From the NCBI GenBank assembly GCA_964502815.1, contig CAZCXV010000001.1, positions 71,907 to 135,906 of the forward strand: a stretch of DNA of 64,000 nt, given 5' to 3'. This document shows positions 6,607-41,813 of the stretch, one piece after another. The position numbers and the translations under genes are program-made. The notes under the pieces are model-generated. The model was not told where the DNA came from. It searched no databases and was given only the letters and a program-made list of their open reading frames with translations. Position 1 is the stretch's first letter, and every line of letters begins with the position of its first letter. This DNA is from an uncultured Gammaproteobacteria bacterium (GTDB lineage Bacteria; Patescibacteriota; Microgenomatia; UBA8517).

Positions 6607-7077
6607 TTAAATCGAAGTTAACTTGTCTATGTAAATTTTTAGTGAATTAATGTCGTCCTGTAAAAATCTCCACTCAGCACTATCAGAAGAAAAATTTTCT
6701 TGCAATTTTTCGATTTGAGGTATGTAAGCCTCCATTTGTTCTTTTGCACTACCAGCTTCACTTTTTAAACTCTTAGCCACTATCACCTCTGATAACTGAC
6801 CAGCAGTAGCTGAATACCTTAAAGTTGCCTTTTCAAAATAAAACATTTTTTTGTTTTCAACTATATAGGTTAATTCATCCATTCTCTTTGCAAGTAATTT
6901 ACTTAAATGAGCTGATTTTGCTTTAGCAGAGAATTTGAAGATTAATGTTACCTTTTCTTTTAATCTTTTAACTTTATAGCTCGAAGAATTATCTGGATTC
7001 ACATTTTCCTTTGCCTGAACCACTGGAGCGAAAAATAAAGGTAATAAAACCAACATTAATATCAAAAACCTTTTCAC
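6607..7077 (-). CDS. secreted hypothetical protein (signal peptide, coiled-coil; DUF5667-like)
   Basis: N-terminus MKRFLILMLVLLPLFFAPVVQA looks like a cleavable signal peptide. The rest is charged and helical. 156 aa. Confidence 0.4.
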   Translation of the reverse strand: MKRFLILMLVLLPLFFAPVVQAKENVNPDNSSSYKVKRLKEKVTLIFKFSAKAKSAHLSKLLAKRMDELTYIVENKKMFYFEKATLRYSATAGQLSEVIVAKSLKSEAGSAKEQMEAYIPQIEKLQENFSSDSAEWRFLQDDINSLKIYIDKLTSI

Positions 7078-17150: not shown

Positions 17151-18052
17151 AAGCAATTTTTCACAATGATGACTTTGGCCTAACCTATGGTTTTACTGAC
17201 GCCATAAAAGATAGCTTTCAAAATGGCGTTACAACAAGTACAAGCTTAAGAACAAATGGCTTTGCTTACAAATACGCAGTTAAACTTTCCAAAGGACCGC
17301 TTAGAAAAATTGGCTTGGGTTTGCACGTTAATATTACCCAAGGAAAAGCACACACTAAAGGCGAAGTAGAAAAATTTGGTGTATATAAGTATAACTTTCG
17401 AAAACTATTTTTGAAGTTATTTGTTATGAACCTACTTAAAATGAAGCAGGGTGTTTTGCTCAAAGATCTTGAGCGAGAAATTGAAGCTCAGTTTGTAATA
17501 GTACTCAAGAAAGACAAGTTAAAAATTTCCCGAGTTGATGGCCACGATCATATACACATGATCCCTGAAGTCTTTCATATAGTTTGTAAGTTATGCAAAA
17601 AATACAACATCGGCTATATTCGCATCCCAAGAGAACCTTTTTATTTTACAGGTTTTCTGAAACAGGATCTTAAAATGATATTCAGCGACAACCTCTTGAA
17701 AGCTCTTATTTTGACTATTTTGTCTGCGGTAAACATTAAGATTGCCAAATCTTATAAACTTAAAACTGTTGACGCCTATTACGGGCTTCTTAATTCAAAC
17801 AATATGAGCTTTTTGGCCATCAATGCAGCTCTTTTGAATGCTTCAAGAAATAATTACGATACTATAGAAATTAATTCACATCCTGCAATAATTAACGATC
17901 CAAGAGATGTAAACTACGTTGACAATTTTATATCCAAATATGCCAATCTAAACACTAGAGAAATTGAACATCTAGGTCTTAAAAGTCAGTTAGTAAAGAA
18001 AACAATTAAGAAATATAAAATTAAACTGACGAACTGTGAAAATATTATTTGA
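17147..18052 (+). CDS. YdjC/ChbG/HpnK-family carbohydrate deacetylase
   Basis: N-terminal HNDDFGLTYGFTDAIKDSFQNGVTTSTSL and the later DGHDHIHM match YdjC-family metal-binding motifs. 301 aa. Confidence 0.55.
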   Translation: MKAIFHNDDFGLTYGFTDAIKDSFQNGVTTSTSLRTNGFAYKYAVKLSKGPLRKIGLGLHVNITQGKAHTKGEVEKFGVYKYNFRKLFLKLFVMNLLKMKQGVLLKDLEREIEAQFVIVLKKDKLKISRVDGHDHIHMIPEVFHIVCKLCKKYNIGYIRIPREPFYFTGFLKQDLKMIFSDNLLKALILTILSAVNIKIAKSYKLKTVDAYYGLLNSNNMSFLAINAALLNASRNNYDTIEINSHPAIINDPRDVNYVDNFISKYANLNTREIEHLGLKSQLVKKTIKKYKIKLTNCENII

Positions 18053-20094: not shown

Positions 20095-21539
20095 GCAAAA
20101 CTAAACTACCCACAATTACTCTTGTTGTAGCTTTATTCTGGCACACCATGTTTTTTTTAAATTCTCCGAAGCTAACCTGGATACCAGCTTTTCTAAACAC
20201 CTGGTTTTTCGAAAAAGGACTTACCTACTATAAAGATTTCATTCAATTACATTTTCCGCTCCCCCATTTAATTGCTTATCCACTTTATAGGTTTACTAAT
20301 TGGAACATCTTGGTAGAACCACTTATGGCCTATATCATAGTCATTACCACTACTTACTTGGTATATATTCTTACAAAGAATAAAATTGGAGACATTGGTA
20401 GATCTTTAAGCTTAATATTTTTTTCTTTAACTTTCTGGAAAGCAAGTACCTGGATTCAGTATTCTGGTGAGTCAGTGATTGGAATTTTCTTAGTTGCAAG
20501 TGTCTTCTGCCTGTATACATTCTGGAAAAGTAGTAAAAGACTAAGTATTGTTTCATTCCTGTTTGGGTTTCTCTTTTCACTAAGCGTCTTGTCAGGACAA
20601 ATTGTTATTCCCACCATTACCTCGCTTGTAGTTTTATACATTCTTTTGCTTCTTAAAAAAGATCTAACGAAAAAGGAAACAATAATGACTTTTCTTAGTT
20701 TGTGCCTCGGGTTAATAATTCCATTTACAATAATCTCGCTATATTTTGTGAGTAAAACTGCATTTAATGACTTCTTTTTCTGGAACATACCTTATTATTT
20801 AACTTACGCCAAACTAGCTCGAGAAAACAGTTCCAGCTTACCCTGGGCTGAAATATTCTTTTTCTTTTCACCAGCTATTCTCTTGACAATTTTAGCGATC
20901 ACTTCAAAAAAGAAAGATTTTTTAAGTATTATTTTGATTTGCGCTTCTCTTCCTTCAATTTACTTTATAGTCAAAAGTATTTTTCATCCCCACCACCTTC
21001 TTTTCGTTCTACCAATCCTAGCAATTTGTTTAGGAAAATCAATAGATCTAATTGAACAAAAAAAACAAATTATCATTTCTGCCATTTTTTTATTATTCAT
21101 TTTTGCCTATGCAGTACTCAATTTACTTCCTTGGCATATATATCGAATCAAACAAGGCGACAGGAATTATAATGATATCTCAACAGAAAAAAATACTGTT
21201 GAATTTACTCTTTGGCTAAAAGCGAATATCGGTAATAAAAAAACAACTGTTGTCGGTGACCCGATGTTATACTACTATGCAAACTTAACGCCTGCTAATA
21301 AGTACTATTCTGCCCTACCTTGGCACTTCTTGCCCATTGAAAAGACAGCCAAGGAGTTTGAATACAAACCTCCAGAGTATTGGATTATAGATATAAACTA
21401 CTTAAAGCGTTTTGATGGTCCCTGGAAAGCAACCAAAGTAAGACAATTTATTTCTAACAAGATAGATGACTGTTGCAGCTTAATTTACGAAAATCCACCT
21501 TGGCAAGTCTGGAAAGCTAATCCAAATACCAAACTTTAA
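20091..21539 (+). CDS. polytopic membrane protein, putative GT-C-like glycosyltransferase (paralog of 18634-20094)
   Basis: 482 aa. Same architecture and shared motifs (…HFPLPHLIAYPLYRF… and YYSALPWHFLP). 4-bp overlap with the upstream gene. Confidence 0.3.
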   Translation: MSKTKLPTITLVVALFWHTMFFLNSPKLTWIPAFLNTWFFEKGLTYYKDFIQLHFPLPHLIAYPLYRFTNWNILVEPLMAYIIVITTTYLVYILTKNKIGDIGRSLSLIFFSLTFWKASTWIQYSGESVIGIFLVASVFCLYTFWKSSKRLSIVSFLFGFLFSLSVLSGQIVIPTITSLVVLYILLLLKKDLTKKETIMTFLSLCLGLIIPFTIISLYFVSKTAFNDFFFWNIPYYLTYAKLARENSSSLPWAEIFFFFSPAILLTILAITSKKKDFLSIILICASLPSIYFIVKSIFHPHHLLFVLPILAICLGKSIDLIEQKKQIIISAIFLLFIFAYAVLNLLPWHIYRIKQGDRNYNDISTEKNTVEFTLWLKANIGNKKTTVVGDPMLYYYANLTPANKYYSALPWHFLPIEKTAKEFEYKPPEYWIIDINYLKRFDGPWKATKVRQFISNKIDDCCSLIYENPPWQVWKANPNTKL

Positions 21540-23478
21540 CACTCTTTTTGTTCAAACAATTGAGGTTGTCGTCAACAGGGAATAAACTAACTTGTTTTGC
21601 TTTCACTCCAGCGAAGAAATAGCTAAACTTTTTCTCAATAAAGTTATTATCTCTTCCGATCTGAGGCGAACCAATCCAATCTTTTTGACGGTACCAATTT
21701 TTGCCATCTGTAGTTGTTTGAACAAAAATCGGAATTTTAGTTTCGCAGCTTGTGTTTAAATTTGCCTCTAACCTAGACAAAACGACTTCTTGGGCTAAAT
21801 TTATAATCAACTTATCTTCATTAATTTCAATTGTCACATTGTTTAACGGTTTCTCAAGCTTTTTATACTCTTCTTTAGTGTGTTCCATGTCATTTTTCCA
21901 TATTTTCAAAACCGGTACTTCATCAACTTTTACCTCGTAGACAGGGATTAATAATTTATCAACATATTCCCACGCATAATGATAATCTCTAGTCTCAAAT
22001 CGATAATAAACTTCCATCAGATATTCACCTTTTCTTTGGATACCAGAAAAATAAGCGTTATTGTAATCAATATCTTTCCTCAGCTTGAACAGGGGAATGT
22101 TTGAGGTCGCTCCTTGAATTAGTGCCAACTTTTCTCCAGAAGAGGAGTTTTTATTAATCCATTCAATTCCTTCCTTGTAAGCATTCCCGAATGTATTTCC
22201 TGAAGCAGGTATGTTTTTTTTGTATGCTCCCGATAATCCACCTATCAAAAAATTAAAATAAGTATTTTCATACGGATGGTATTTTACGAGCGGAAGGACT
22301 AAAACAACACTGCTTATACAAAGCAATAAGATACCTCCAATCAGGCCAGCTCTCCTTAACATCTTTACTCTTAACCACTCTGCTCCCAATCCGGCCAACA
22401 AGGTCATTGGAGGAATATATTCCAATATTTGTCTTGCTCCACCATAAATAGCAAATCGCGACCAGGTTACTCGAGCTATTGGAGCAATAAGCCAGAAAAT
22501 TAGGAGGGTCAGAATTGCCCTTTTGCTTTCAAGATGTTTCTTGATAGTAAACAAACCAAACGCAAGAAAAAGAAGAGTTAAGAGATTTGTTGTCAATATG
22601 ATCCATACAAATGGGTAAAGGTTAACAGGACCAAATGTAAAGCCTGGTTGGTAAACGATATTCGTTCCCTCAGTTTCGTAATATTGTAATGTTTTTGCGA
22701 TATTACCAAGAGGATCGCTCCAAAGATACGGCCATGATAAAATAAATATCCCAATGATTACCAGAGAGGAAATAATTAGATAAGATATTGTTTTTTTTGA
22801 AATAATAAAATCGAATTTATTCTTATCTTTCAAAAAAAGGTATAAAATCCAAGGCCCGAGTATAAATACTGTAAACAAGATGTTTAACTTTATGCTCATA
22901 GATATGCCTGCACATATCGCCCCCAGCAACAACAAGGTAGCCTTTCTTTTTTTAACAGCGTTAAACAGAAAATATAAAAAACCGACAAAAAAGGCAGTTT
23001 GTGGGACATCTTTCACATTAAAATGCGACTCTGCCCAAAAAAGTGGGTACGTAAACAACAACAATGAGGAGAAAATTGCTGGCCAGACACCAAAATTTTC
23101 ATAAGCGAAAAGAAAAGTAAAAAAGACTATCAATGCTGCCGTAAATACTATAAATAAGTTGTATGCTTCAATGTCACCTATAATTCTTAACTCCTGGAAA
23201 AAGACTCTATTGAAAGTAGCCATAAGAATATCTCCTAGTGGGGGATGTCCCATATCTTGGTCTTTTAGCTTTTTTCCAGTATGCAAAACGTCATTGGTTT
23301 GATAAAAACTATATGTATTTTTAAACGTTTCTTCACCCGTTAAATAATATTGTAGATAGGTTTGCCCTCTTCTAAAATGAACAGGTGAATCCCAAGATAT
23401 CCAATAATCGTTGAGGGTTGCAATACCAACAATCAAAAAAATAGACGAGATACAAAATGCCAGAGCAACTTTTTTCAT
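21517..23478 (-). CDS. GT-C-like membrane glycosyltransferase with C-terminal discoidin-like domain (paralog of 28724-30691)
   Basis: Conserved GHPPLGDIL…IGDIEAYNLFIV block shared with 28724-30691. Multi-TM. The C-terminal ~200 aa is soluble. Start placed at MKKVALAF (ATGA overlap with the upstream stop) rather than the track ATG at 23526. Confidence 0.4.
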   Translation of the reverse strand: MKKVALAFCISSIFLIVGIATLNDYWISWDSPVHFRRGQTYLQYYLTGEETFKNTYSFYQTNDVLHTGKKLKDQDMGHPPLGDILMATFNRVFFQELRIIGDIEAYNLFIVFTAALIVFFTFLFAYENFGVWPAIFSSLLLFTYPLFWAESHFNVKDVPQTAFFVGFLYFLFNAVKKRKATLLLLGAICAGISMSIKLNILFTVFILGPWILYLFLKDKNKFDFIISKKTISYLIISSLVIIGIFILSWPYLWSDPLGNIAKTLQYYETEGTNIVYQPGFTFGPVNLYPFVWIILTTNLLTLLFLAFGLFTIKKHLESKRAILTLLIFWLIAPIARVTWSRFAIYGGARQILEYIPPMTLLAGLGAEWLRVKMLRRAGLIGGILLLCISSVVLVLPLVKYHPYENTYFNFLIGGLSGAYKKNIPASGNTFGNAYKEGIEWINKNSSSGEKLALIQGATSNIPLFKLRKDIDYNNAYFSGIQRKGEYLMEVYYRFETRDYHYAWEYVDKLLIPVYEVKVDEVPVLKIWKNDMEHTKEEYKKLEKPLNNVTIEINEDKLIINLAQEVVLSRLEANLNTSCETKIPIFVQTTTDGKNWYRQKDWIGSPQIGRDNNFIEKKFSYFFAGVKAKQVSLFPVDDNLNCLNKKSVKVWYLD

Positions 23479-24014
23479 CTTAAGTATTGTATTTCTGGAT
23501 ATTTGTTTTCTCCCAAACCAGAACAAAGAACTGGAATTTCGGCACGTGGATAGTAAGAAACATTTGAGGAATTCTCCTGAACATTATTCAGCCAAAAATA
23601 CTGTGCTTTTGAAAGGCACTTTTCTGCTTCAGTAAGATTTGTCATTTTCGAGTGGTAAAATCCTGAAACTTTGCCGTTTTCCAAGTTGAATTGTGCAACT
23701 GCTACATCAACGGTTACTCTGGCAAAATCTAAATTTTCATTATCGATACCAATTACAAATATCTTGCTGCCGTCTTTGATAATTTGCACATCTTGCAAAT
23801 CTACAGTTTCACTTCTTTGGCTCCCGTCAACACGCCAAAAAACTTGAAGATTTGAAATACCAAGAACTTGAAATCCATATAACGTTAATGGAATTTCAAT
23901 TCTTTTGTCGTCAACAATTGCATTATATTCGATCTTTGCCCCAGGCCAGCCTTGGTGTTTTCCAGCATAGGCAGATTTTAACGTGTCCTCCAAAAAACTA
24001 GTCTGTCGATTCAT
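23475..24014 (-). CDS. hypothetical protein
   Basis: The track ORF is 23475-24137, but its first 41 codons overlap the SGNH hydrolase gene. An ATGA overlap at 24011-24014 suggests a start at MNRQTSF. No recognisable domain. Confidence 0.25.
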   Translation of the reverse strand: MNRQTSFLEDTLKSAYAGKHQGWPGAKIEYNAIVDDKRIEIPLTLYGFQVLGISNLQVFWRVDGSQRSETVDLQDVQIIKDGSKIFVIGIDNENLDFARVTVDVAVAQFNLENGKVSGFYHSKMTNLTEAEKCLSKAQYFWLNNVQENSSNVSYYPRAEIPVLCSGLGENKYPEIQYLR

Positions 24015-25090
24015 ATTATCGTACAAAAATATCTTTTGGGTAGCCAAACCGTTTTTAATGTCAAAATAAGCCCAGCTAAGTGGTAAACGAGTAATAGCGC
24101 TATACCTTTCAAGGTTTGAATCTTCTGCAAGTACCATTGAAGAAAGTTCAATCGCTGGCTCTTTTGGGTTAGTAGTTTTCTTTCCATTAAAGTATCTGAA
24201 ACATATTCCCCAGCAAGTTTGTTTGCATAAAATGATGGATGCTGGTCATTCGGATTTAAAACCAATAGTTTTTTATCTTCTACTCCTTTGAATTTCTCAT
24301 ACAAATCGATTACTTTGATGTTGTTATTGCTTGCTAAGGTTGATATCGTTTCGTGAAAAAAACTGAATTGATAATTACGATTAGGATTCAATGCATCATA
24401 TTGAGGAAAAACAACTAAAACCGGTGTTGCATTTATTTTCTTTACAGAATTGGAAAACATTTCCAGAAGTTGTTTAGTACGGTCATATTCCCCACTGCCC
24501 AAAGTATATGCTTTTTTAACCTCTGACATAGTTTTGTTTCCAGATTTAACCTTTTCTATCATGCCATGTGTCAACCAATAGATTCGCAGTGAACGAACTA
24601 ATTTACTTTTTACATATTTTGGTGGAAATTCTTTAAACACAAAATCTTGAGCATTTATCCCAATTAGCACCAAATCTGGATTAAAAGCAAGGCCTTCATC
24701 ATTAAGACGAGTCAGTTCGGTTTCAAAATTAAAGCCTGGTCTAGCTGCGTTAATTATCTCAACATTTGAAAATCCATACTGTTTCACAAGATATTCCTTC
24801 ATTACCTCAGGAAATGACTGCCCTTTTTCAAGATACCATCCGTAAGTATATGAATCGCCTAAGATATATATTCGGATCGTATCCTTATTTTTTTCTATTT
24901 TTACCTCTTTCTCCCAATAGCCAAAATTATTTAAAACTACGTTTTTCGACAACCAGTCAAAATCGTTTCTTTTGTACCTGGGATCAAGAAATGGTGGGTG
25001 CCAAAATATCCTCAGTAGAACCTCTACAAACAGAAGAACTGCAAGTGTAACTCCAAATATTTTCAAAAGTTTCAAATAGAGAGCTTTCAT
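24011..25090 (-). CDS. membrane-anchored SGNH/GDSL-family hydrolase
   Basis: An N-terminal TM helix, then the block I motif IYILGDSYTYG and a C-terminal DQH (DxxH) catalytic motif. 359 aa. Paralog of 32118-33209. Confidence 0.5.
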   Translation of the reverse strand: MKALYLKLLKIFGVTLAVLLFVEVLLRIFWHPPFLDPRYKRNDFDWLSKNVVLNNFGYWEKEVKIEKNKDTIRIYILGDSYTYGWYLEKGQSFPEVMKEYLVKQYGFSNVEIINAARPGFNFETELTRLNDEGLAFNPDLVLIGINAQDFVFKEFPPKYVKSKLVRSLRIYWLTHGMIEKVKSGNKTMSEVKKAYTLGSGEYDRTKQLLEMFSNSVKKINATPVLVVFPQYDALNPNRNYQFSFFHETISTLASNNNIKVIDLYEKFKGVEDKKLLVLNPNDQHPSFYANKLAGEYVSDTLMERKLLTQKSQRLNFLQWYLQKIQTLKGIALLLVYHLAGLILTLKTVWLPKRYFCTII

Positions 25091-26169
25091 TTGATTAAGA
25101 ATGGCTTGACTAACCTTGCCACCTTAATTACCTCACTGTCAGTTACAACAGCGTCCAGTGGCAATGTGGCTACTTTATCTCCGACGTATTCTGTAACAGG
25201 CAATTTTTTAGTCCGATATTTCTCAAAAGCTGGCTGCAGGTGTAAAGGTGTAAAATGAAATGAACAACCAACTCCATTCTTTTTCATATGCTCAAAAAAT
25301 TTATCTCTATCTTTAACCAATACAGGGTACAAATGCAGACCTTTGTTATCAAGATCTAGCAGTTTATTATATAAATTTACAACATGAGTTCTCCTTTTCA
25401 GAAACCCGTTAAGCCTTTTCAACTGTACTCTGCCTAAAGCCGAGTTAATATCCGTCGTGTTAACCTTATATCCTGGAAATTCGACTGTGTAAATCCATTT
25501 TGAATTAAGATTGTATCGTTTCCAAGCATCTTTAGATAATCCATGCAATCTCGCTTTCCGAAACCAATCTGCAACTTTATCATCTGATGTAGTAAGCATT
25601 CCACCTTCACCAGTGGTCATGTTTTTTGTTGCATAAAATGAGTATGCAGTTGCAAACGCCTTGTTATTGTCACAACCACTTTCTGTCAAATGTGCACTAT
25701 CTTCAATTACTGGAATCTCTGTCTTTATTTTTGCTTTATTTGCTGCGTAATGGACTGGGATTACCGCCTTGGTTTTTCGAGATAATACCGATTCAAGTGA
25801 TTTCTGGTCCATAGTAAAGGTATCTTCATTGATATCAGCAAAAACAGGTGTCGCTCCAACATGGACAATAACACTTACGGAGGAAGCAAAAGTAAACGAA
25901 GGCACTATTACCTCATCACCTGGCCCAACGTTCAAAGCTTTCAAAGCAAGGAATAGAGCAGAGGTAGCACTGTTAACCGCCACTGCGTGTTTAGCGCCAA
26001 CATATCTTGCAAATTCATCCTCAAATTTTAACGTCTCATGTCCCATGGTCAACCAACCGCTTTTGAGCACTCTAGTAACGGCATTTATCTCTGCCTTTCT
26101 TATAGAAGCTCTGGTCAATGGTATTTGCTTCATATTCTTTACGATAAACCTCATTAACTTGCCACCCAT
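25087..26169 (-). CDS. DegT/DnrJ/EryC1/StrS-family PLP-dependent sugar aminotransferase
   Basis: …FEDEFARYVGAKHAVAVNSATSALFLALKAL… plus the PLP-lysine region SFYATKNMTTGEGGM. 360 aa. Confidence 0.7.
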   Translation of the reverse strand: MGGKLMRFIVKNMKQIPLTRASIRKAEINAVTRVLKSGWLTMGHETLKFEDEFARYVGAKHAVAVNSATSALFLALKALNVGPGDEVIVPSFTFASSVSVIVHVGATPVFADINEDTFTMDQKSLESVLSRKTKAVIPVHYAANKAKIKTEIPVIEDSAHLTESGCDNNKAFATAYSFYATKNMTTGEGGMLTTSDDKVADWFRKARLHGLSKDAWKRYNLNSKWIYTVEFPGYKVNTTDINSALGRVQLKRLNGFLKRRTHVVNLYNKLLDLDNKGLHLYPVLVKDRDKFFEHMKKNGVGCSFHFTPLHLQPAFEKYRTKKLPVTEYVGDKVATLPLDAVVTDSEVIKVARLVKPFLIK

Positions 26170-27569
26170 TTAAGATAAGGTGTGTATTTCTTTAATATTT
26201 GATAAATCTTTCTATTATCTCCAATTTCTGACGCCATTAATAGATCTGTCAAGTCCTCATCTTGAAAAATTTTACCATTTTTGTTTTTTGCCATTCTAAT
26301 TCTATCAATTGACGTTTTAACAACATTTTCCTCATCGTTAAACAACTCTTCTGACATCTTTTCTCCTGGCCTAACACCAGTATAGTTGATTTTTATTTCT
26401 TCGTCCGGAATAAAACCAGCAAGTCTAATCATTGTTCGCGCGAGATTATCTATCTTTATTTGTTCACCCATATCTAGAACAAAAACTTCTCCACCTGTAC
26501 TTAAAATCGAAGCATGCAACACTAGCTGAACCGCCTCAGGAATAGACATAAAATAACGGATCATTCTTTTATCTGTGACAGTTACTGGTCCTCCCTTTGC
26601 TATTTGTCTTTTAAACGTCGGGACAACACTTCCTACGCTTCCAAACACATTACCAAATCTAACAGCACAGTATTGAGTTCTATTTTTGTTATTAAACCCG
26701 GAAATAATCTTTTCACCCACTAGTTTCGTCGCTCCCATAATACTTGTTGGATTAACGGCTTTATCTGTTGATAAGTAAACAAATTTCTCTACTCCCCTTT
26801 CATATGCCGCTCTAGCTACATTGTGGGTACCAGCGACATTGTTTTTGATGGCTTCTTCGGGAAATATTTGCATCAGTGGTACATGTTTGTAGGCCGCAGC
26901 ATGAAAAACAATTTCAGGATTGTATTCTCTCATGACTTCGTACAACTTTTTATAGTCTCGAATGTTTGCAATTGAGTAATAAATACGATCTTTGTATTCC
27001 TTGAGTTCGACTCCAAGCTCATATAAACCATTTTCAGACCAATCAAGCGCAATAATCTTTTTTGGATTGCAAGATACTAGTTGCCTGCAGATCTCAGACC
27101 CAATCGATCCAGCTGCTCCAGTTATTAGGATTGTTTTGTTTTTAAATTTCTTTTTGAATAACTCTACACTTGATTTCAAAATAGCTCTACCTAAAATGTC
27201 TTCTACTTGTATTTCTCTTACTTGCTGTAGTTTTACTTTGCCTTCAACTATTTCCGAGAGTCTAGGAATGATTTTGAACTGTACTTTAACTTCCCTGCAC
27301 AAATCTATGATTCTCCTGACCGTTTCACCCTCACCTGAAGGAATAGCTATAAACACTTCGTTAATATGATATTTACTAATAAGCTGTGGAAGTTCGTTTG
27401 TATTACCCAAGACATTAAAGGAATTAATTTTTTGCTTTTGTTTTTTTGGGTCGTCATCAACAAGGCCAATTATTTCGTAAAAGTTAGGTAAATTCTTTAC
27501 TATTTCATCAACCAATTCTTGACCAGCAACTCCTGCACCAACAATTAATATTTTTTGTTTTTCTCTCAT
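26154..27569 (-). CDS. polysaccharide biosynthesis protein, NDP-sugar 4,6-dehydratase (CapD/PglF/WbpM-like)
   Basis: Two Rossmann motifs (ILIVGAGVAGQELV and KTILITGAAGSIGSEICRQLV). 471 aa, the size and architecture of CapD-like dehydratases. Confidence 0.65.
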   Translation of the reverse strand: MREKQKILIVGAGVAGQELVDEIVKNLPNFYEIIGLVDDDPKKQKQKINSFNVLGNTNELPQLISKYHINEVFIAIPSGEGETVRRIIDLCREVKVQFKIIPRLSEIVEGKVKLQQVREIQVEDILGRAILKSSVELFKKKFKNKTILITGAAGSIGSEICRQLVSCNPKKIIALDWSENGLYELGVELKEYKDRIYYSIANIRDYKKLYEVMREYNPEIVFHAAAYKHVPLMQIFPEEAIKNNVAGTHNVARAAYERGVEKFVYLSTDKAVNPTSIMGATKLVGEKIISGFNNKNRTQYCAVRFGNVFGSVGSVVPTFKRQIAKGGPVTVTDKRMIRYFMSIPEAVQLVLHASILSTGGEVFVLDMGEQIKIDNLARTMIRLAGFIPDEEIKINYTGVRPGEKMSEELFNDEENVVKTSIDRIRMAKNKNGKIFQDEDLTDLLMASEIGDNRKIYQILKKYTPYLKWVAS

Positions 27570-28720
27570 ATCTTCCTTGTCAACGTTAGAAATTTATCAA
27601 CACTACCCTCTACACTAAAATCCCTAGCCGCTTCTTTTGTATTACTGGAAAATTCTTGAATTTTCTCTTTTGACTCCAACAATTCTACTATGATTTTTGC
27701 CAAATCACTAGAGTCTTCTTTCTTAAAGGTGTAACCCACTTTATATTTACGAACTAAATAACTTAAATCTGGTAGATCTGAGGCGATAATAGGCGTACCA
27801 CTCTTCATAGCTTCCGAGAAAACAAGCGGTATGCTATCGCTTCTTGATGGAATGACTAACATATGAGCTTCTGAAAGTATATCCGAAATTTTCTTTGGTT
27901 CCGAAATATTTCCGTAAAAATCGACAAAGGCTGTAATTTTTTGTTTTCTTGCCTCCTCTTTCAGGGAATTTAGAAGTGATCCGTCACCAATGAAATTTAT
28001 CTTGAATCTGTAAAGCTGTGTTTTTATTTTCAATATTGCTGCTAAAAATACATCCGGACCTTTTACTCTTTCCATTCGGCCAAGAAAAGTTAGAACTATC
28101 TTCTTCTTAAACGTTTTTTTCTTATTTATTTCGGAAGAAGGCATTTTGCTAGCCGACGGAAGGAAAATAACTTCCCTATTTGCAAGTTCCTCGGTCCTTT
28201 GTTTAAGATCAATACCGTCTGCAAACACATATTCCGCCTGTTTGAGAATAAGTGCTATAACTTGACGAACAATCGGAAACTTTCCATAAACATATATATC
28301 TGACCCTAGAACCCACACACTATATGGTAAACCAAACCGTATCCTTAACCATAACGTAAACAATCCAGCCGGAAATGCCCACATAGCTAAGGTAGTTTTA
28401 ATATTTCGATTAGTCTTAATGAATTTTTCTGCTTTAACAAAACCATTTAAGAATGAGAAAACATAGTTAAAATAATCGACAGGATTATAAAATGAAAAAT
28501 ATCCAAGTTTTTTTTTGCCTAACCAAGTAATAAAAGTTGTATTAACATTACCCACTCTATTGACGTGTGTATCGCCACCTAAACAAAAGATGTTTACTTT
28601 TATGTATTTTGCCAGCTCCGAAGTAAAATCATAAACAAAAATTCCAGCGTCCTTTCTTTCTTTCGGATTCGATGGAAAATTATGTGTGACAACTCCGATT
28701 TCAACTACTTTTTGTTTCAT
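27566..28720 (-). CDS. GT4 family glycosyltransferase (GT-B)
   Basis: C-terminal …PSRSDSIPLVFSEAMKSGTPIIASD… is an EX7E-type motif. 384 aa. Confidence 0.55.
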   Translation of the reverse strand: MKQKVVEIGVVTHNFPSNPKERKDAGIFVYDFTSELAKYIKVNIFCLGGDTHVNRVGNVNTTFITWLGKKKLGYFSFYNPVDYFNYVFSFLNGFVKAEKFIKTNRNIKTTLAMWAFPAGLFTLWLRIRFGLPYSVWVLGSDIYVYGKFPIVRQVIALILKQAEYVFADGIDLKQRTEELANREVIFLPSASKMPSSEINKKKTFKKKIVLTFLGRMERVKGPDVFLAAILKIKTQLYRFKINFIGDGSLLNSLKEEARKQKITAFVDFYGNISEPKKISDILSEAHMLVIPSRSDSIPLVFSEAMKSGTPIIASDLPDLSYLVRKYKVGYTFKKEDSSDLAKIIVELLESKEKIQEFSSNTKEAARDFSVEGSVDKFLTLTRKI

Positions 28721-28723
28721 TTC

Positions 28724-30691
28724 TTACTCGAGAGTCCAAAGATAAATCTTATTGCTCCTTAAAATGCAAGAATTTACTTTTGGTGCTTTGATTCTAACAT
28801 ATCTAGCTTTCTTTGCTGCTAAGAATAATGTCTCAGTAGAATCAATAGGTTCGTAATTAGTTACCTGATTTCCTGGTATAGTATCTGGTTCAGATTTCCA
28901 ATTTACTAAATCGCTTGACAGTTCAACAACTGAAAAATTGTTACTACAATCAACGATAGAAGGAATCTCTGCATATAATCTAGTAATCCTTTTTTCACTT
29001 CCCAAATCAATATAAATAGTGTTATCTATATTCTTAGGCAACAATTCATGTCTAGTTTCATTTTTACGCAATTCTTCCACTACATGGTCGGGATCATTCT
29101 TCCATATCTTAGCTAAAGCGACACCATCTACTGAAACTTCGTGGACGGGGGTCAAAAATGTTTCGATATAATCCCAACCATATGGATAAAGCCTAACTGG
29201 GTCATTATGAGTCAACTCTACCATGTATTCACCTTTTTGAAATATTCCACTCCAATTTAAGTTAGAAAAATCAATATCTTGCCTTAATTGTATAGTTGGT
29301 ATATTAGTCATCGTCCCTTGAACCAGAGCTATTCTCGCATTTTGCTCAGCATTATTATTCAACCATTGTGCTGCCTGAAAATAAGCGTTACCGAAACTGT
29401 TTCCCCAGTAAGGTATATTCCTTTGTACTGCTCCACGAATTCCCCCCACCAGAAAATTAAAGTAGACGTTCTGATTTGGATGAAGTTTGAAAAGTGAATA
29501 TACGGTAGGTAAAAAAAGAGAAGACAAAAGTATGGCGGCTAGAATAACAGTTTTTTTATAGGCTTTAACTCGAGCAAATATTTCGCTAATCCCAAATCCT
29601 ACCATTAATGCTAGCGCTGGAATAAACTCCATTATTTGCCTCACCCCTCCATAAATTGAGGCTCCAGGGACAGAAACCCGTAATATTGGTATTACCATCC
29701 ACAAAAGCCACAATACTGTCGCCTTGTTTTTACCCTTATCTTTTAAAACACAAACCATGCCAATTAATGCCAATGGCAATAACACTGGCGGAGTAGTGAT
29801 AATAATCCAGATCAAAGGATAACCATTGAACCCACCAGGTAAGATAAACCTGCTTTGGACATTTGATTCGGTTCCAATTTCTTTATAGTAACTCACAACA
29901 GACAACAAATTACCCAATGGGTCTTGCCATAAATATGGCCAAAAAAGAAACAGTATTGCCAGAGAAATTGCAGGAATTACTAAAAGTGAAATGATATATT
30001 TTTTAGCACTACGAAAGTTTTTCTTAAAGTAAAATAGCAAAAAGGGAAATATAATAAACGGCAGAAAAACAATATTAAACTTTATCCCTAAGGCTAATCC
30101 AGACGTCATAGCCGCAATAAACAGTAGATATGGTTTTCTTTTTTTAATAGCACGCCAAATTATAAATATTGTCAGAGAGTAAAACAGCGTCTGCGGCGGA
30201 TCTTTGATATTAAAGTGTGACTCAGCAAAAAATAACGGATAAGTTGACAATGCTATCTGGGAAAATATTGCTCCAATTAACCCAATCTCTTGATAAGCAA
30301 ATATCCCAATAAGGAGTACTAACAAAGCTGATGACAAAACAATAAACAAGTGATGGGCTTCAATATCACCCATAAGTCCTAGTTTCTGATAAAAAACTAT
30401 ATTAGTAAAAGCTGAAAGTATGCCATTTATTGGTGGATGACCCCCATCATCCTCTAAAAAATAACTTGCATTTTGAATATCACTTTGAAAATAACCTCTC
30501 TCCCCTTGTAAATCCTTGTAATCTTTATTGCCAGTTGTTAATAAATGAAAGTAAGCATGTCCTCTACGTAGGTGAATTGGGGTGTCCCAAGATATTCCAT
30601 AGTCAGATAACGTTCCAACACTAACTATGAAGAACAACAATGGAATAAGAAAAACTAAAAACTTGCTTTTGAGTTTTAGTATTGAATTCAC
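28724..30691 (-). CDS. GT-C-like membrane glycosyltransferase with C-terminal discoidin-like domain (paralog of 21517-23478)
   Basis: GHPPINGIL…MGDIEAHHLFIV block. Multi-TM with a C-terminal soluble domain. 655 aa. Confidence 0.4.
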   Translation of the reverse strand: MNSILKLKSKFLVFLIPLLFFIVSVGTLSDYGISWDTPIHLRRGHAYFHLLTTGNKDYKDLQGERGYFQSDIQNASYFLEDDGGHPPINGILSAFTNIVFYQKLGLMGDIEAHHLFIVLSSALLVLLIGIFAYQEIGLIGAIFSQIALSTYPLFFAESHFNIKDPPQTLFYSLTIFIIWRAIKKRKPYLLFIAAMTSGLALGIKFNIVFLPFIIFPFLLFYFKKNFRSAKKYIISLLVIPAISLAILFLFWPYLWQDPLGNLLSVVSYYKEIGTESNVQSRFILPGGFNGYPLIWIIITTPPVLLPLALIGMVCVLKDKGKNKATVLWLLWMVIPILRVSVPGASIYGGVRQIMEFIPALALMVGFGISEIFARVKAYKKTVILAAILLSSLFLPTVYSLFKLHPNQNVYFNFLVGGIRGAVQRNIPYWGNSFGNAYFQAAQWLNNNAEQNARIALVQGTMTNIPTIQLRQDIDFSNLNWSGIFQKGEYMVELTHNDPVRLYPYGWDYIETFLTPVHEVSVDGVALAKIWKNDPDHVVEELRKNETRHELLPKNIDNTIYIDLGSEKRITRLYAEIPSIVDCSNNFSVVELSSDLVNWKSEPDTIPGNQVTNYEPIDSTETLFLAAKKARYVRIKAPKVNSCILRSNKIYLWTLE

Positions 30692-30713: not shown

Positions 30714-31280
30714 TTAGCGAAGCTTCTCAAGAAGTGATGCTATGTGTTCCAAGTCAGAATTAAGTAAAGACTTTTGATTCTCTGGAACTTTACCATTTAT
30801 GAATTTTAACAAAGCCGCTTGTTTTTCGAGTGATGAAATAAACCTATCTTTAAGGTTACTATTAGATTGTCCTGATTCTTCAACCTTCTTCAACAAAGAA
30901 ATCACTTTATCTCTTTTTTGACGCGCATCACTTAATGTTTCTTTTGCGTTTGCATAATCTGCATCATTAATCAACTTTTCCGCTTCGACAATTCTTTTTT
31001 CCACTAAAACTATATTGTAGTCAGTTTTTTTATAATTACTAAAAATCACTAACTCTCTCAATTGCTCTTTAAGTAGCTTGAGAGGATAGATTGCGTTCCC
31101 TCTAGTTTTGCCTGCTGCAATAGGCCAAAACATCTCAAAAGAGCTAACTTCTGCCTTTTTTTCTTCGGGGGTTGGTGATTGAGAAAAAACCAAACTATAG
31201 TTAGGAACTACAACTAAAGCAATAAATCCAAACAGTAAAAGTAAACTTAGCAAACCTCTAACTCTTAACATAAAGACCAT
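30714..31280 (-). CDS. hypothetical secreted/membrane-anchored coiled-coil protein (DUF5667-like)
   Basis: N-terminal hydrophobic anchor, then a charged helical region. 188 aa. Confidence 0.3.
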   Translation of the reverse strand: MVFMLRVRGLLSLLLLFGFIALVVVPNYSLVFSQSPTPEEKKAEVSSFEMFWPIAAGKTRGNAIYPLKLLKEQLRELVIFSNYKKTDYNIVLVEKRIVEAEKLINDADYANAKETLSDARQKRDKVISLLKKVEESGQSNSNLKDRFISSLEKQAALLKFINGKVPENQKSLLNSDLEHIASLLEKLR

Positions 31281-32052
31281 TATAGGAGATGTAGAGAGAA
31301 GGTGTCAATATACGGAAAAAGAAACTATTATCCAAATAATTAACCATTTTCAGTAAACTCTTGATTCCAGAAGGAAACAATTTACCGATTAACATCAAAA
31401 CTGGAAAGAGCAATGTAAAAATGGGTATTGCTTCTTTTTTTACAATTTTAATACCAACTGACTTTGCCAATATTTCAATATCTTTTGGTGAAAAACTTAC
31501 AGCCGGAATTTCCCTATTTTTTTTTCCTCTTAACTTACTTACCAAACCTCCAAGGGTAACCAAGAAATAACCAAATGGTTCCCTTTCAATGATTACTATT
31601 TTTCCACCAGGCTTTAGCACTCTGGCTATTTCTGAAAAGACTTTCTTCTGTTCCTTTTTTTTCACTACATACATCAGTACAGTAACAATATATATTTGAT
31701 CAAACACGGAATTCTTAAAAGGCAGTGAAACAGCACTTGCTACGTAAGCTTTTCCTCTGGGGGACAATTTTCTATTAAAAATAGAGACATAATTTGAAGC
31801 AACGTCTACACCCACAACTTGAGAGCTGGGAAATTTCATTAAGATCTTCTCTGCAAGTCTTCCGTAACCACAACCAATTTCTAAAACTTTAGATTTTTTA
31901 GCCTTAATCGGTGCCATGACCTTTTTGGCCATCCAATCATCAAGATACATATTAACTTCCTTAGGAAACGACTTTGGCAGTACTCCTTCAATCAAGTCTT
32001 TATACTTTCTGCTTCTTTCTTCCCAAGCTGTTTTAATTTCAGTACTCTGCAT
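31258..32052 (-). CDS. class I SAM-dependent methyltransferase with C-terminal TM segment
   Basis: Motif I VLEIGCGYGRLAEKIL. A C-terminal hydrophobic helix. 264 aa. Confidence 0.55.
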   Translation of the reverse strand: MQSTEIKTAWEERSRKYKDLIEGVLPKSFPKEVNMYLDDWMAKKVMAPIKAKKSKVLEIGCGYGRLAEKILMKFPSSQVVGVDVASNYVSIFNRKLSPRGKAYVASAVSLPFKNSVFDQIYIVTVLMYVVKKKEQKKVFSEIARVLKPGGKIVIIEREPFGYFLVTLGGLVSKLRGKKNREIPAVSFSPKDIEILAKSVGIKIVKKEAIPIFTLLFPVLMLIGKLFPSGIKSLLKMVNYLDNSFFFRILTPSLYISYNGLYVKS

Positions 32053-34299: not shown

Positions 34300-35070
34300 T
34301 TAGTTTACTAACCAATTCTCTCTGTTCCTATCATCATAATAATGAAGAATTTTAAGTCTATAAAAAACAGCCAATGTATCCCAAGCCATTTTAAAAATTG
34401 TTGACCATCTGATGTGCGACGTTCTCTCATCAAAATGAACTTCTATCGGTCCTTCAAAAATGCGTTTGAAACCTAAATATTTAGCAACAGCCAATATTTC
34501 TATATCCATCGCATATCTTTTAACCAATAACCTTGGAAGAATTTTTTCGATTACTTCCCTGCGAAAAATCTTTATTCCACTTTGAGTGTCAGTTAATGGT
34601 AATCCGAAGAGTATTTTCACCCCAAAATGATAACCAATACTAAAAATATGCCTTAAAGGCGGATAATTCACCTGTGACACTGGGTGTCTTTTGGAACCAA
34701 CAATGATGTCAGCATTATACCAATCCATATGTGCCATGAGCATCATTATACCCTTAGGAGAAATATCCATCCCAGCATCTAAAAATGATATTAAACTTCC
34801 CTGTGCCTTACTCATTCCATATCTGACAGCATAACCTTTACCAGCATTATCTGGGTATGCAAATATTTTTATGTGCTGTGATTTTACTTTTCTGGCCTCT
34901 TTGTCTGACTGGTCCAGTCTACCGTCAACCACACAAATGATCTCATAATCATAGTCACGGGCTAATCCTTTCGCCACAGTTCTATCAATATTCTCAAGAT
35001 CTTTCTTAATTGTTTTTTCTTGTTTATATGTGGGGACAATTATTGACAATAATTTCTTATTTTCCACCAT
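34300..35070 (-). CDS. GT2 family glycosyltransferase
   Basis: Motifs LSIIVPTYKQEKTI, VVDGRLDQSD and LDAGMD. 256 aa. Confidence 0.55.
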   Translation of the reverse strand: MVENKKLLSIIVPTYKQEKTIKKDLENIDRTVAKGLARDYDYEIICVVDGRLDQSDKEARKVKSQHIKIFAYPDNAGKGYAVRYGMSKAQGSLISFLDAGMDISPKGIMMLMAHMDWYNADIIVGSKRHPVSQVNYPPLRHIFSIGYHFGVKILFGLPLTDTQSGIKIFRREVIEKILPRLLVKRYAMDIEILAVAKYLGFKRIFEGPIEVHFDERTSHIRWSTIFKMAWDTLAVFYRLKILHYYDDRNRENWLVN

Positions 35071-41805: not shown

Positions 41806-41813
41806 ATCTTAAG

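Follow-up and report, generated by a model that had tools for sequence, protein, structure and literature searches.

In a Microgenomates bacterium of the candidate phyla radiation (CPR), two coupled genes likely direct the synthesis of a rare 4-amino-6-deoxy sugar nucleotide. The genes conserved around them suggest export of the amino sugar on a lipid carrier in a manner resembling the polymyxin-resistance (Arn) pathway, rather than a role as the primer of a Campylobacter-type glycan. The genes lie in a 64 kb stretch of a contig that is 180 kb or longer; this stretch (the window) contains 57 open reading frames (ORFs), all of which were scanned with Pfam. New here are a clade of dehydratases without transmembrane (TM) segments, a conserved order of genes in the cassette, the local absence of a phosphoglycosyltransferase (PGT), and the presence in the same island of a formyltransferase and of GT2 glycosyltransferases resembling ArnC, GtrB and DPMS. 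The dehydratase, aminotransferase, GT4 and two GT-C ORFs of an initial annotation are all present, with the coordinates given there, on the minus strand, and in transcription order the cassette and its upstream neighbours are as follows.

31258–32052, minus strand: SAM-dependent methyltransferase, head of the co-directional run (PF13649, PF08241)
30714–31280, minus strand: DUF5667 protein with an N-terminal anchor (PF18915, E = 2.9e-7)
28724–30691, minus strand: GT-C of the PMT_2/ArnT-like family (655 aa; PF13231, E = 1.2e-10)
27566–28720, minus strand: GT4 (GT-B, retaining; PF00534 Glycos_transf_1, E = 2.5e-31)
26154–27569, minus strand: soluble (TM-less) UDP-GlcNAc 4,6-dehydratase of the PglF/WbpM class (471 aa; PF02719)
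25087–26169, minus strand: DegT-family PLP sugar 4-aminotransferase of the ArnB/Spr1654-like subfamily (360 aa; PF01041)
23475–25090, minus strand: membrane-anchored SGNH/GDSL hydrolase gene, frameshifted (PF13472, E = 2.3e-12)
21517–23526, minus strand: paralogous GT-C that closes the cassette (PF13231, E = 5e-8), with its ATG start probably at 23478

The dehydratase had been described as of the CapD/PglF/WbpM type, and this holds. Its Polysacc_synt_2 domain (PF02719, E = 5.8e-114) is preceded, as in Campylobacter jejuni PglF (WlaL) and Pseudomonas WbpM, by a Rossmann-like domain (CoA_binding_3 in Pfam), GxGxxG and TGxxGxxG motifs are found at residues 11 and 150, and the top PDB match is PglF (5BJU, 269 bits). 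Judged by its sequence, the signature T268-D269-K270...M278xxxK282 (TDKxnMx3K) is that of the retaining PglF/WbpM class. Enzymes of this class naturally carry methionine in place of the SDR tyrosine and use Thr-Asp-Lys instead (PMC8987622), so that the lack of a catalytic Tyr, which the initial annotation had offered as a refutation, was misconceived as a test; the window protein has the exact TDK signature. It differs from PglF and WbpM in its length (471 versus ~590–665 aa) and in lacking their N-terminal anchor of ~130–140 aa (roughly four TM helices), with no TM segments predicted. Such proteins of ~470 aa without a membrane anchor form a clade that occurs in Microgenomates, and a neighbour-joining tree splits the TM-less dehydratases cleanly from TM-bearing forms. 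The anchor of PglF and WbpM is thought to position the enzyme beside a membrane PGT.

The dehydratase and aminotransferase genes overlap by 16 nt, as first reported, when the longest aminotransferase ORF is taken; the overlap falls to 1 nt (TAATG) if translation begins at Met6 (26154), which may be the true start since a Shine–Dalgarno-like GGTGG motif lies 7 nt upstream of its ATG. Whichever start holds, the arrangement implies translational coupling. In some relatives, again unlike PglF and WbpM, the dehydratase is fused to the aminotransferase: four natural fusion proteins of 821–823 aa have DegT halves 66–70% identical to the window enzyme. The dehydratase would convert UDP-GlcNAc to UDP-2-acetamido-2,6-dideoxy-4-hexulose with the C5 configuration retained, and the DegT enzyme would then transaminate C4 with glutamate and PLP. 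Enzyme assignments, gene overlap and fusion together make UDP-4-amino-4,6-dideoxy-HexNAc the likely product, in line with the product class originally proposed.

Within that class the aminotransferase (DegT_DnrJ_EryC1, PF01041, E = 2.1e-91) offers some guidance. Its closest PDB relatives are ArnB (208 bits) and then Streptococcus pneumoniae Spr1654 (189 bits), the UDP-AATGal aminotransferase of teichoic acid synthesis, with PglE (1O61) at 71 bits. Among NCBIfam models ArnB is best at 272 bits, followed by PseC at 254 bits (cut-off 423.5), and all model scores fall below the equivalog cut-offs. The key residues are the PLP lysine Lys182, Asp157, Phe94 and Lys235, the first two of which align with catalytic residues of ArnB. 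Unlike ArnB, where Trp89 reportedly excludes N-acetylated sugars, the window enzyme has Phe94 at this position, a replacement that fits an N-acetylated hexose substrate. It resembles Spr1654 in this respect, having an aromatic residue smaller than Trp where the N-acetyl group fits, and in its proposed substrate, UDP-4-keto-6-deoxy-GlcNAc. It is shorter than Spr1654 (360 aa versus the 427-aa 6EWJ chain), for which insertions at residues 150–164 and 212–217 have been described as specific (PMC5936713). Pneumococcal UDP-AATGal enters the first membrane step as substrate, and its sugar starts the teichoic acid repeat unit (PMC5936713); in the window, by contrast, no PGT accompanies the module. Being far from PglE and nearest to ArnB and Spr1654, the enzyme does not make bacillosamine the best guess among the types named earlier (bacillosamine, QuiNAc4N or AAT-Gal). 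The AATGal configuration is slightly favoured over that of bacillosamine, a weak inference from the axial (galacto/L-arabino) amine that both of the nearest characterised relatives produce.

The two flanking GT-C genes are paralogues, as the initial annotation had it, with 40% identity over their full length (E = 1e-156). The discoidin-like domains that it described are sub-threshold in Pfam (E = 4.7e-4, in one paralogue only) but are confirmed by a predicted structure: in a high-confidence AlphaFold model of the 28724–30691 protein (pLDDT 91.8, pTM 0.91), Foldseek matches the C-terminus (~residues 545–655) to CBM32/F5-8 type C domains with probability 1.0. A W35-D36(E37) motif following TM1 is invariant. 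The membrane part matches STT3/PglB, ArnT, ALG12 and Emb, STT3/PglB being best with a score only marginally different from that of ArnT, and Pfam assigns the protein to PMT_2, not STT3 or Wzy_C. The family has 821 members, and Microgenomates are named in every source that gives an organism.

The order GT-C, GT4, dehydratase, DegT, (SGNH), GT-C is kept in five of six sampled relatives (loci L081–L085), and this synteny, which persists at identities as low as 49%, supports the proposed functional tie between the module and its flanking GT-Cs; the orthologue of the 21517–23526 GT-C in L081 is itself 49% identical. At least 12 pairs of dehydratase and GT-C clusters have longest contigs identical in size. 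The GT4 had been said to follow the dehydratase: its identity as a GT4 stands but the order is true of the coordinates only, the gene being upstream in transcription and overlapping the dehydratase start by 4 nt, an arrangement that makes it, from sequence, translationally coupled. Its orthologues (35–49% identity) keep the same position in L081–L085. The DUF5667 gene, directly upstream of the first GT-C, keeps this place in both L083 and L089, is GT-C-adjacent in L084, and orthologues of the methyltransferase (49–51% identity) are found in L081, L085 and L089.

Further genes relevant to the fate of the sugar lie elsewhere in the window.

15575–16303, minus strand: small soluble GT2 of the type of polyprenyl-phosphate sugar synthases, consistently paired with the formyltransferase on its upstream side (242 aa)
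14765–15571, minus strand: stand-alone N-formyltransferase, candidate N4-formyltransferase for the amino sugar (268 aa; PF00551, E = 4.3e-29)
12376–14778, minus strand: polytopic membrane protein encoded downstream of the formyltransferase, its C-terminal region weakly discoidin-like (800 aa)
10700–11647, plus strand: ArnC-like GT2, candidate polyprenyl-phosphate amino-sugar synthase (315 aa)

The formyltransferase revises the earlier statement that no acetyl- or acyltransferase was obvious in the window. It is without the Fmt C-terminal domain, matches Fmt (76 bits), ArnA (65 bits) and WbkC (65 bits) in the PDB and lies 9.5 kb from the DegT gene. It is absent from five sampled cassette neighbourhoods and its family is small (39 clusters), so formylation would be lineage-specific at best. 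The seven best PDB matches of its GT2 partner are to GtrB, DPMS and ArnC (39–56 bits), its NCBIfam matches are to PgfS and ArnC, and its orthologues (54–58% identity) stand directly ahead of the formyltransferase at two loci. One of these, L088, has orthologues of DegT (63% identity), the small GT2 (58%) and the formyltransferase (57%) in immediate succession; at the other, L089, the order is DegT, GT-C, GT2, formyltransferase, ArnC-like GT2. The 10700–11647 GT2 matches ArnC (9HWJ) over its full length at 145 bits and has two C-terminal TM helices (241–259 and 272–290); its orthologues (53–62% identity) are immediate neighbours of the cassette GT-C at three loci (L082, L085 and L088), and in L089 the neighbour is the formyltransferase. 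In total the window encodes five GT2s resembling polyprenyl-phosphate sugar synthases.

The local absence of a PGT, the ArnC/GtrB/DPMS-like GT2s and N-formyltransferase of the island and the DegT–GT2–formyltransferase order in L088 lead us to prefer, with roughly even confidence, an Arn-like three-component route, from UDP-sugar to polyprenyl-phosphate sugar to GT-C, a reading built on homology and synteny. In the window organism the amino sugar would optionally be N-formylated by the 14765–15571 enzyme, loaded onto polyprenyl phosphate by one or both of the GT2s listed above, flipped across the membrane and attached outside it by the flanking GT-Cs to a glycan or glycoprotein of the cell surface; the CBM32-like domains of the GT-Cs would hold the glycan acceptor. 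Of the two roles first suggested for the sugar, substrate and primer, that of a GT-C substrate agrees with the formyltransferase and the polyprenyl-phosphate sugar synthases. Against this route, the GT4 has no role in the scheme although no other gene is so tightly coupled to that of the dehydratase, the top Foldseek matches of the GT-C (STT3/PglB) use PP-linked oligosaccharides, and there is a gene for a Wzx-like flippase at a distance of 5 kb (35057–36322). Neither a deformylase nor a flippase for the route was identified.

The proposed logic of UDP-amino sugar, formylation, Und-P-sugar and GT-C is that of the Arn lipid A modification pathway, of which the island has an ArnC-like GT2, an ArnA-N-like formyltransferase and ArnT/PMT_2-like GT-Cs. 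The 4-keto sugar, however, would come from 4,6-dehydration of UDP-GlcNAc and not from decarboxylation of UDP-GlcA by ArnA-C, and homologues of ArnD and ArnE/F were not found. CPR bacteria are believed to have no lipid A, which calls for a different acceptor. Other three-component systems (GtrA/B/C, CsbB–GtcA–YfhO and Citrobacter youngae ORF12–15 (GT136)) likewise pair a polyprenyl-phosphate sugar synthase with a GT-C whose acceptor glycan lies outside the membrane, and a GT-C with a C-terminal carbohydrate-binding module has a precedent in one of this type (PMC11127046). The present case would differ in its donor, a 4-amino- or 4-formamido-4,6-dideoxy-HexNAc from a dedicated coupled module, in the integral and conserved GT4, and in the two paralogous GT-C genes that bracket the module; a small 4-TM flippase was not identified in the cassette.

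Unlikely, in our view, is a Pgl-like primer, in which a PglC/WbaP-type PGT encoded elsewhere in the genome would move the UDP-4-amino sugar as sugar-1-phosphate to undecaprenyl phosphate, the GT4 would extend it in the cytoplasm (like PglA/PglJ/PglH), the Wzx-like flippase would export the product and the GT-C would act as oligosaccharyltransferase or ligase. The combination of GT-C, GT4, PglF-like and DegT genes does resemble a minimal pgl cluster, the GT-C has STT3/PglB as its best structural matches, and the flippase gene is retained in the vicinity of the cassette in L082, L083 and L085. PglH/WlaC is also the top PDB match of the GT4, but at only 41 bits, and the PDB matches of this protein are uninformative (BshA scores 37 bits, and PimA is also among them). 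Outside the CPR, the closest relatives of the two enzymes are encoded in clusters ordered DegT, PglC-like PGT, dehydratase, and a Bac_transf PGT is present in 28 of 42 loci (each of at least 15 kb) around TM-anchored dehydratase homologues from other phyla. By contrast, a six-frame scan (E ≤ 10) of the window and eight further Microgenomates loci (nine loci, 232 kb) recovered none, and no PglC/WbaP/WecA-type enzyme is found among the 57 window ORFs, in keeping with the earlier remark that none was obvious; this counts against the Campylobacter/Neisseria-style primer suggested there, which needs such an enzyme. The contig is 180 kb or longer, of which the window takes in 64 kb, so a PGT gene may lie elsewhere. 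The loss of the dehydratase anchor, the assignment of the GT-C to PMT_2 and the absence of a PglD-type acetyltransferase also speak against this reading. The likeness of the DegT enzyme to ArnB cannot tell the routes apart, as 19 of 35 large metagenomic loci have a member of this subfamily beside a PglC-type PGT.

Equally doubtful is direct use of the nucleotide sugar, with the coupled GT4 as its sole consumer, transferring it in the cytoplasm to a lipid (such as a diacylglycerol or glycolipid anchor), a protein or a growing glycan, and the GT-Cs using other lipid-linked sugars and being merely co-located. GT4 enzymes take NDP-sugar donors directly and some have lipid acceptors, and the 4-nt overlap and the constant position of the GT4 in all five cassette loci favour this reading. 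At three more loci (L086, L088 and L089) a GT4 adjoins DegT or the dehydratase, but the DegT-adjacent GT4s of L088 and L089 are not orthologous to the cassette enzyme (23% identity). Left unexplained are why the module is so strictly accompanied by a pair of paralogous GT-C genes and why DegT, small GT2 and formyltransferase are linked. This reading does not conflict with the Arn-like route if the GT4 builds the acceptor.

A PglF-like or PseB dehydratase and a DegT aminotransferase also open the nonulosonic (legionaminic/pseudaminic) acid pathways, and PseC is the second-best NCBIfam model, but that origin is very improbable here, given a PseC score well under the cut-off, a retaining Mx3K rather than inverting PseB Yx3K signature, and Pfam scans of the 57 window ORFs and eight related neighbourhoods that recognised no NeuB/PseI/LegI synthase, NeuC/LegG/PseG hydrolase or CMP-sugar synthetase.

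Two further genes deserve brief mention. The SGNH gene is split by a frameshift in the window (24011–25090 and 23475–24137): residues 5–317 of a single 540-aa L081 protein align to frame -1 and residues 332–540 to frame -3. The 12376–14778 protein has eight TM segments within residues 1–313 and weak F5_F8_type_C and CBM_AftD matches; PF00754 proteins of similar size follow the formyltransferase in L088 and L089, their similarity to the window protein being marginal (E = 6e-6).

The following genes all lie on the minus strand, and the ORF positions of the initial annotation are borne out:

28724-30691, minus strand, PMT_2-type GT-C protein (Pfam)
27566-28720, minus strand, GT4
26154-27569, minus strand, dehydratase of 471 amino acids; Pfam Polysacc_synt_2 (E=5.8e-114) plus an N-terminal CoA_binding_3 Rossmann-like domain
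25087-26169, minus strand, aminotransferase of 360 amino acids; DegT_DnrJ_EryC1 (E=2.1e-91)
21517-23526, minus strand, second PMT_2-type GT-C protein (Pfam)

The stop codon of the GT4 gene overlaps the dehydratase start by 4 nt and, if the longest DegT ORF is used, the dehydratase and DegT genes overlap by 16 nt. An internal ATG (Met6) is at least as plausible a DegT start, since it gives a 1-nt overlap (TAATG) and has a GGTGG motif 7 nt 5' of it. The eight genes between 32052 and 21517 share one direction, overlap or lie no more than 22 nt apart, and so look like one operon. In four protein clusters (P0023, P0028, P0052 and P0062; 821-823 amino acids), dehydratase and DegT form one polypeptide, the C-terminal halves being 66-70% identical to the window DegT and the N-terminal halves 52-54% identical to the dehydratase; these fusions occupy at least two places in a neighbour-joining (NJ) tree of the dehydratases. 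The existence of natural fusions, together with the gene overlap, strongly supports the prediction that the two enzymes act consecutively.

Between the DegT and second GT-C genes lies an SGNH/GDSL gene (23475-25090, minus strand) that is apparently split by a frameshift near 24100-24125. Residues 5-317 of its 540 amino acid orthologue in L081, one of the gene neighbourhoods retrieved from relatives, align to ORF 24011-25090 and residues 332-540 to the overlapping ORF 23475-24137, in a different frame. No homopolymer run was seen at the frameshift site; the split may reflect a pseudogene or a mistake in the assembly.

By its fold and by Lys182 and Asp157, the 25087-26169 product is predicted to be a DegT/DnrJ/EryC1 sugar aminotransferase: the PLP Schiff-base Lys182, the PLP-N1 Asp157 and the glutamate-binding Lys235 align to catalytic residues of ArnB. 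A histidine at the PLP-lysine position would indicate a ColD-type dehydratase. In a PDB search the nearest solved relatives were ArnB (208 bits) and 6EWJ (189 bits), with PseC (115) and PglE (71) lower; the PglE (bacillosamine) type of aminotransferase, one of the affiliations entertained in the initial annotation, is not borne out, C. jejuni PglE (1O61, 70.6 bits) ranking 53rd of 56 PDB matches. 6EWJ is Spr1654, which has been proposed to act as the UDP-AATGal aminotransferase when pneumococcal teichoic acid is made (PMC5936713). None of the NCBIfam equivalog cut-offs was reached by DegT (PseC, 254 against 423.5; ArnB, NF008658, 272 against 631), and it also departs from ArnB at Trp89, a residue that shuts out N-acetylated sugars and is Tyr in Spr1654 and Phe in PseC (PMC5936713). 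The window DegT has Phe94 at this position, with which a HexNAc substrate fits. Both ArnB and Spr1654 install an axial amine (L-arabino/galacto), giving a weak hint that the product has the AATGal configuration, stereochemistry itself being beyond the reach of homology.

Metagenome scans with DegT gave no matches to single-sequence patterns; alignment patterns recovered only relatives of 33-45% identity and no additional cassette loci. Alongside these relatives lay a PglC-type phosphoglycosyltransferase (PGT) in 19 of 35 large loci and an ArnC-like GT2 in 7 of 35. The ArnB-likeness of DegT was rejected as evidence of route, because the same subfamily adjoins PglC-type transferases.

The best solved relative of the dehydratase (PDB search) is C. 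jejuni PglF/WlaL (5BJU, 269 bits), ahead of CapD (6BWC, 183), PseB/FlaA1 (161) and CapE (157). The catalytic SDR domain (PF02719, E=5.8e-114) spans residues 147-428, with TGAAGSIG from residue 150 as the TGxxGxxG NAD-binding motif. A T268-D269-K270...M278-G-A-T-K282 signature aligns with ISTDKAV...IMGCTK of PglF, and [ST]DK...Mx3K is common to 117 of 120 dehydratase homologues. Enzymes of the WbpM/PglF class are marked by TDKxnMx3K, with Thr/Asp as the base, and those of the inverting PseB class by [ST]DKxnYx3K, the absent Tyr of PglF being replaced by Thr395/Asp396/Lys397 (PMC8987622, a review of nucleotide-sugar dehydratases). On its sequence, we assign the dehydratase to the PglF/WbpM class. 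The initial annotation held that lack of the catalytic Tyr would count against the enzyme. Met occupies the SDR Tyr position here, as it does throughout the PglF/WbpM class, and since the class carries Met together with the TDK signature, such a test would wrongly reject a genuine member. Conversion of UDP-GlcNAc to UDP-4-keto-6-deoxy-GlcNAc, and of this to UDP-4-amino-4,6-dideoxy-HexNAc, is strongly supported as the predicted activity of the pair. The first of these conversions is predicted to leave the C5 configuration unchanged.

No transmembrane (TM) or hydrophobic segments are predicted in the dehydratase, whose ORF begins at the GT4 stop codon and encodes no N-terminal multi-helix membrane anchor. 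Homologues from other phyla are about 608-640 amino acids long with a mean of 3.4 N-terminal hydrophobic segments. WbpM catalysis is possible without the membrane anchor (PMC8987622), and so the anchor-less enzyme would be an architectural variant still within the class. A search of 5.8 billion proteins placed approximately 100 clusters nearest (46-64% identity), almost all of them TM-less proteins of 462-508 amino acids, and in addition the four fusions; the few with a source name came from Woesebacteria, Levybacteria or Microgenomates. A scan of species-representative genomes returned only relatives of 42-48% identity, from other phyla, which served as a contrast set but were of no use for statistics on the cassette described next. 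In the NJ tree the 15 TM-bearing sequences form a single clade with no soluble members inside it.

The arrangement is conserved in the neighbourhoods L081 (64% identity), L082, L083 (which has a fusion), L084 (49%, a Levybacteria genome) and L085. In each, the order is GT-C (~650-710 amino acids), GT4, dehydratase, DegT, an optional SGNH gene and a second GT-C, each member of this cassette being orthologous by reciprocal BLAST. In at least 12 pairs of dehydratase and GT-C clusters the longest contigs are equal in size (e.g. 36308, 52404, 215126, 64748 and 609565). A sixth relative, L086, differs in having the dehydratase followed by a 313 amino acid GtrB/ArnC-like GT2 and then GT4, with DegT absent. 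All cassette components are members of known families. Nothing on the cassette was found in the literature on CPR/Microgenomates glycosylation, and the following appear undescribed: a clade of PglF-type enzymes that lack TM segments and are in some cases fused, the constant association of this clade with GT4 and two GT-Cs bearing carbohydrate-binding modules (CBMs), and the absence of a PGT.

A DUF5667 gene frequently adjoins one of the cassette GT-C genes, and both the window and its relatives repeatedly encode small, N-terminally anchored DUF5667 proteins beside genes for GT-Cs or other glycosylation functions:

window, 6607-7077 and 30714-31280 (minus strand), DUF5667 proteins
L082, 15548-16048, DUF5667 protein
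L083, 6261-6824, DUF5667 protein
L084, 12482-13063, DUF5667 protein
L089 (a formyltransferase neighbourhood), 4190-4744, DUF5667 protein

The DUF5667 gene directly abuts GT-C in the window (30714-31280), L083 and L084. These proteins might be acceptors or accessory subunits.

The two flanking GT-C copies are 40% identical. An AlphaFold model of the cassette GT-C (42 homologues; pLDDT 91.8, pTM 0.91) matched STT3/PglB (E ~1e-8, TM-score 0.41-0.46) and ArnT (E=3e-7, ArnT-normalised TM-score 0.52) in a Foldseek search of the PDB, with further matches to ALG12, Emb, AftD and AftA. As modelled, the fold resembles STT3/PglB and ArnT about equally and leaves OST-like and ArnT-like donor preference unseparated. 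In Pfam the family is PMT_2/PMT, not STT3. TM1 is followed directly by an invariant W35 and D36 and a nearly invariant E37, reminiscent of the PMT 'DE' motif. The discoidin-like domain read from the sequence alone is upheld by Foldseek on the model, its C-terminal beta domain matching CBM32/F5-8 type C modules with a Foldseek probability of 1.0.

The density of such proteins between 12376 and 63155 is extraordinary: approximately 17 polytopic proteins of GT-C size (PMT_2, PMT, YfhO, or without a Pfam match), six of them in tandem at 40138-50084, are interspersed with at least nine GT2, five GT4 and seven SAM methyltransferase genes.

A pgl-type locus, with the amino sugar in the primer role favoured by the initial annotation, needs a PglC-type PGT initiating on Und-P. 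None was found among the 57 window ORFs: Pfam gave no Bac_transf (PF02397) or Glycos_transf_4 match in any of them, nor in the unannotated membrane proteins at E<=5. Where homologues from other phyla carry the TM anchor, a PglC-type PGT (Bac_transf E<=1e-53) is encoded between DegT and the dehydratase. An HMM built from three of these found a PGT in 44 of 80 other-phyla loci, and in 28 of the 42 that are at least 15 kb long; searched in six frames at E<=10, the window and eight loci from Microgenomates, nine loci totalling 232 kb, yielded none. Loss of the anchor thus goes together with loss of the PGT beside it. The window also differs from pgl loci in having no hexapeptide acetyltransferase, where those have a PglD-type N-acetyltransferase, and in GT-Cs that match only PMT_2 in Pfam rather than STT3 (PF02516) or PglL (Wzy_C). 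A Pgl-like primer route with its PGT encoded elsewhere would accommodate GT4 and the STT3/PglB structural matches, and the window takes in 64 kb out of a contig measuring 180 kb or more; we consider this route rather unlikely.

Also encoded in the island are five GT2s that resemble polyprenyl-phosphate sugar synthases. Two of these are listed here with a formyltransferase:

10700-11647, ArnC-like GT2 of 315 amino acids with two C-terminal TM helices; its best match is ArnC (145 bits, full length), followed by GtrB and DPMS
15575-16303, small GT2 of 242 amino acids whose top seven PDB matches are GtrB, DPMS and ArnC
14765-15571, stand-alone N-formyltransferase without the Fmt C-terminal domain, directly downstream of 15575-16303

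The formyltransferase scores alike against Fmt, ArnA-N and the sugar N-formyltransferase WbkC, and its family is small (39 clusters). Both formyltransferase neighbourhoods retrieved, L088 and L089, have a linked DegT gene. In L088 the small GT2 (58% identity) and then the formyltransferase (57%) come directly after a DegT orthologue (63%); L089 has the order GT4, DegT, GT-C, small GT2, formyltransferase, ArnC-like GT2. Orthologues of the ArnC-like GT2 (53-62% identity) abut the cassette GT-C in L082, L085 and L088. None of the cassette neighbourhoods L081-L085 contains the formyltransferase, so formylation would be an accessory step of some lineages, that of the window organism included.

The 800 amino acid protein at 12376-14778 (single-sequence AlphaFold pLDDT 37) showed no similarity to the GT-C profile by hhalign. 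A conserved trio of GT2, formyltransferase and this protein was downgraded to a GT2-formyltransferase pair because orthology to the ~800 amino acid proteins of L088 and L089 is only marginal (E=6e-6).

Homology and synteny, the basis of every functional assignment given here, suggest a route in which our confidence is evenly balanced. The UDP-4-amino sugar would optionally be N4-formylated, an ArnC/GtrB/DPMS-like GT2 would move the sugar onto polyprenyl phosphate, the product would be flipped, and the flanking GT-C enzymes would transfer the sugar extracytoplasmically, their CBM32 domain binding the glycan acceptor. Direct use of the amino sugar by the coupled GT4, whose PDB matches are too weak for functional assignment, is comparatively improbable, on a par with the Pgl-like route. 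A nonulosonic acid pathway was rejected as highly improbable because Pfam showed no synthase, hydrolase or CMP-transferase in the 57 window ORFs or in eight related neighbourhoods, and the dehydratase signature is of the retaining type.

By analogy, the lipid-linked route would parallel both the Arn (polymyxin-resistance L-Ara4N) pathway and the Citrobacter three-component system. Homologues of ArnC (145 bits, full length), ArnA (65 bits) and ArnT (TM-score 0.52) are present, all below equivalog thresholds; the ArnA C-terminal UDP-GlcA decarboxylase, the deformylase ArnD and the flippase ArnE/F were not found among the window ORFs (Pfam on all 57, NCBIfam on a subset). The window has the core of a three-component system, namely a polyprenyl-phosphate sugar synthase and a GT-C, which in such systems may or may not bear a CBM, with DegT linkage in L088 and L089; the Citrobacter GT-C carries a CBM, as the window GT-C does (PMC11127046). 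Pfam gave no match to a small flippase (GtrA, ArnE/F or EmrE-like) in the window, where a 191 amino acid protein (50089-50664) and a Wzx-like protein (35057-36322) are no more than candidates.

More tentatively, Microgenomates may build surface glycans without PGT-primed pathways, through an enlarged repertoire of three-component systems, this 64-kb island encoding ~17 membrane proteins of GT-C size. The cassette would then be an undescribed Arn analogue in which a PglF-type dehydratase freed from the membrane, and in some cases joined to its aminotransferase in one protein, supplies polyprenyl-phosphate 4-amino- or 4-formamido-4,6-dideoxy-HexNAc to CBM-bearing GT-Cs. If so, a cationic or formylated sugar would be placed on the envelope of an organism that presumably lacks lipid A. 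Should the Arn-like route hold, lipid-linked amino-sugar donors would reach beyond Ara4N and GalN to 6-deoxy-HexNAc sugars. To our knowledge, CPR bacteria are mostly uncultured episymbionts whose surface chemistry is essentially unknown. A lineage-wide cassette joining a rare amino sugar to dedicated GT-Cs offers a testable entry to CPR cell-surface display, and it is experimentally tractable in that the soluble enzymes are all expressible. Loss of the anchor, loss of the adjacent PglC-type PGT and occasional fusion bear on why PglF and WbpM are membrane-anchored.

Several other genes deserve mention. For the 191 amino acid protein, which has no match in Pfam, four TM helices are predicted; its gene forms a divergent pair with that of a soluble AglJ/PpgS-like GT2 (50684-51370), and the protein could be a flippase of the GtrA/ArnE type that has diverged beyond the reach of Pfam. 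At 34300-36322 (minus strand) and 36326-37462, a soluble GT2 of 256 amino acids, unusually conserved (50-72% identity in L082-L085 and L089), partners a Wzx-like MOP flippase; beside them is a 378 amino acid GT-C-like protein whose relatives match Mannosyl_trans2. All three are conserved ~5-8 kb upstream of the cassette and might constitute a three-component unit in their own right. The sole candidate deacylase in the window is a YdjC-family protein (17147-18052, plus strand) of the carbohydrate deacetylase type, which might remove formyl or acetyl groups from the amino sugar; its gene, with a methyltransferase on each side, is kept beside the cassette in L081 and is absent from L088 and L089. 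In L088 (13928-17448), two carbamoyltransferase genes (Carbam_trans_N/C) and a Methyltransf_21 gene, with no counterparts in the window, follow the GT2-formyltransferase unit and suggest that this lineage decorates its sugars further, for example by O- or N-carbamoylation. The island also encodes a sulfotransferase-family protein (11658-12365, plus strand). Finally, the 529 amino acid ORF at 1295-2884 (plus strand) joins an NAD-dependent epimerase-like N-terminal half to a xylose-isomerase-like TIM barrel (AP_endonuc_2), and is taken to be a fusion because the two halves are separate adjacent genes in L084 (18134-18901 and 17316-18137).
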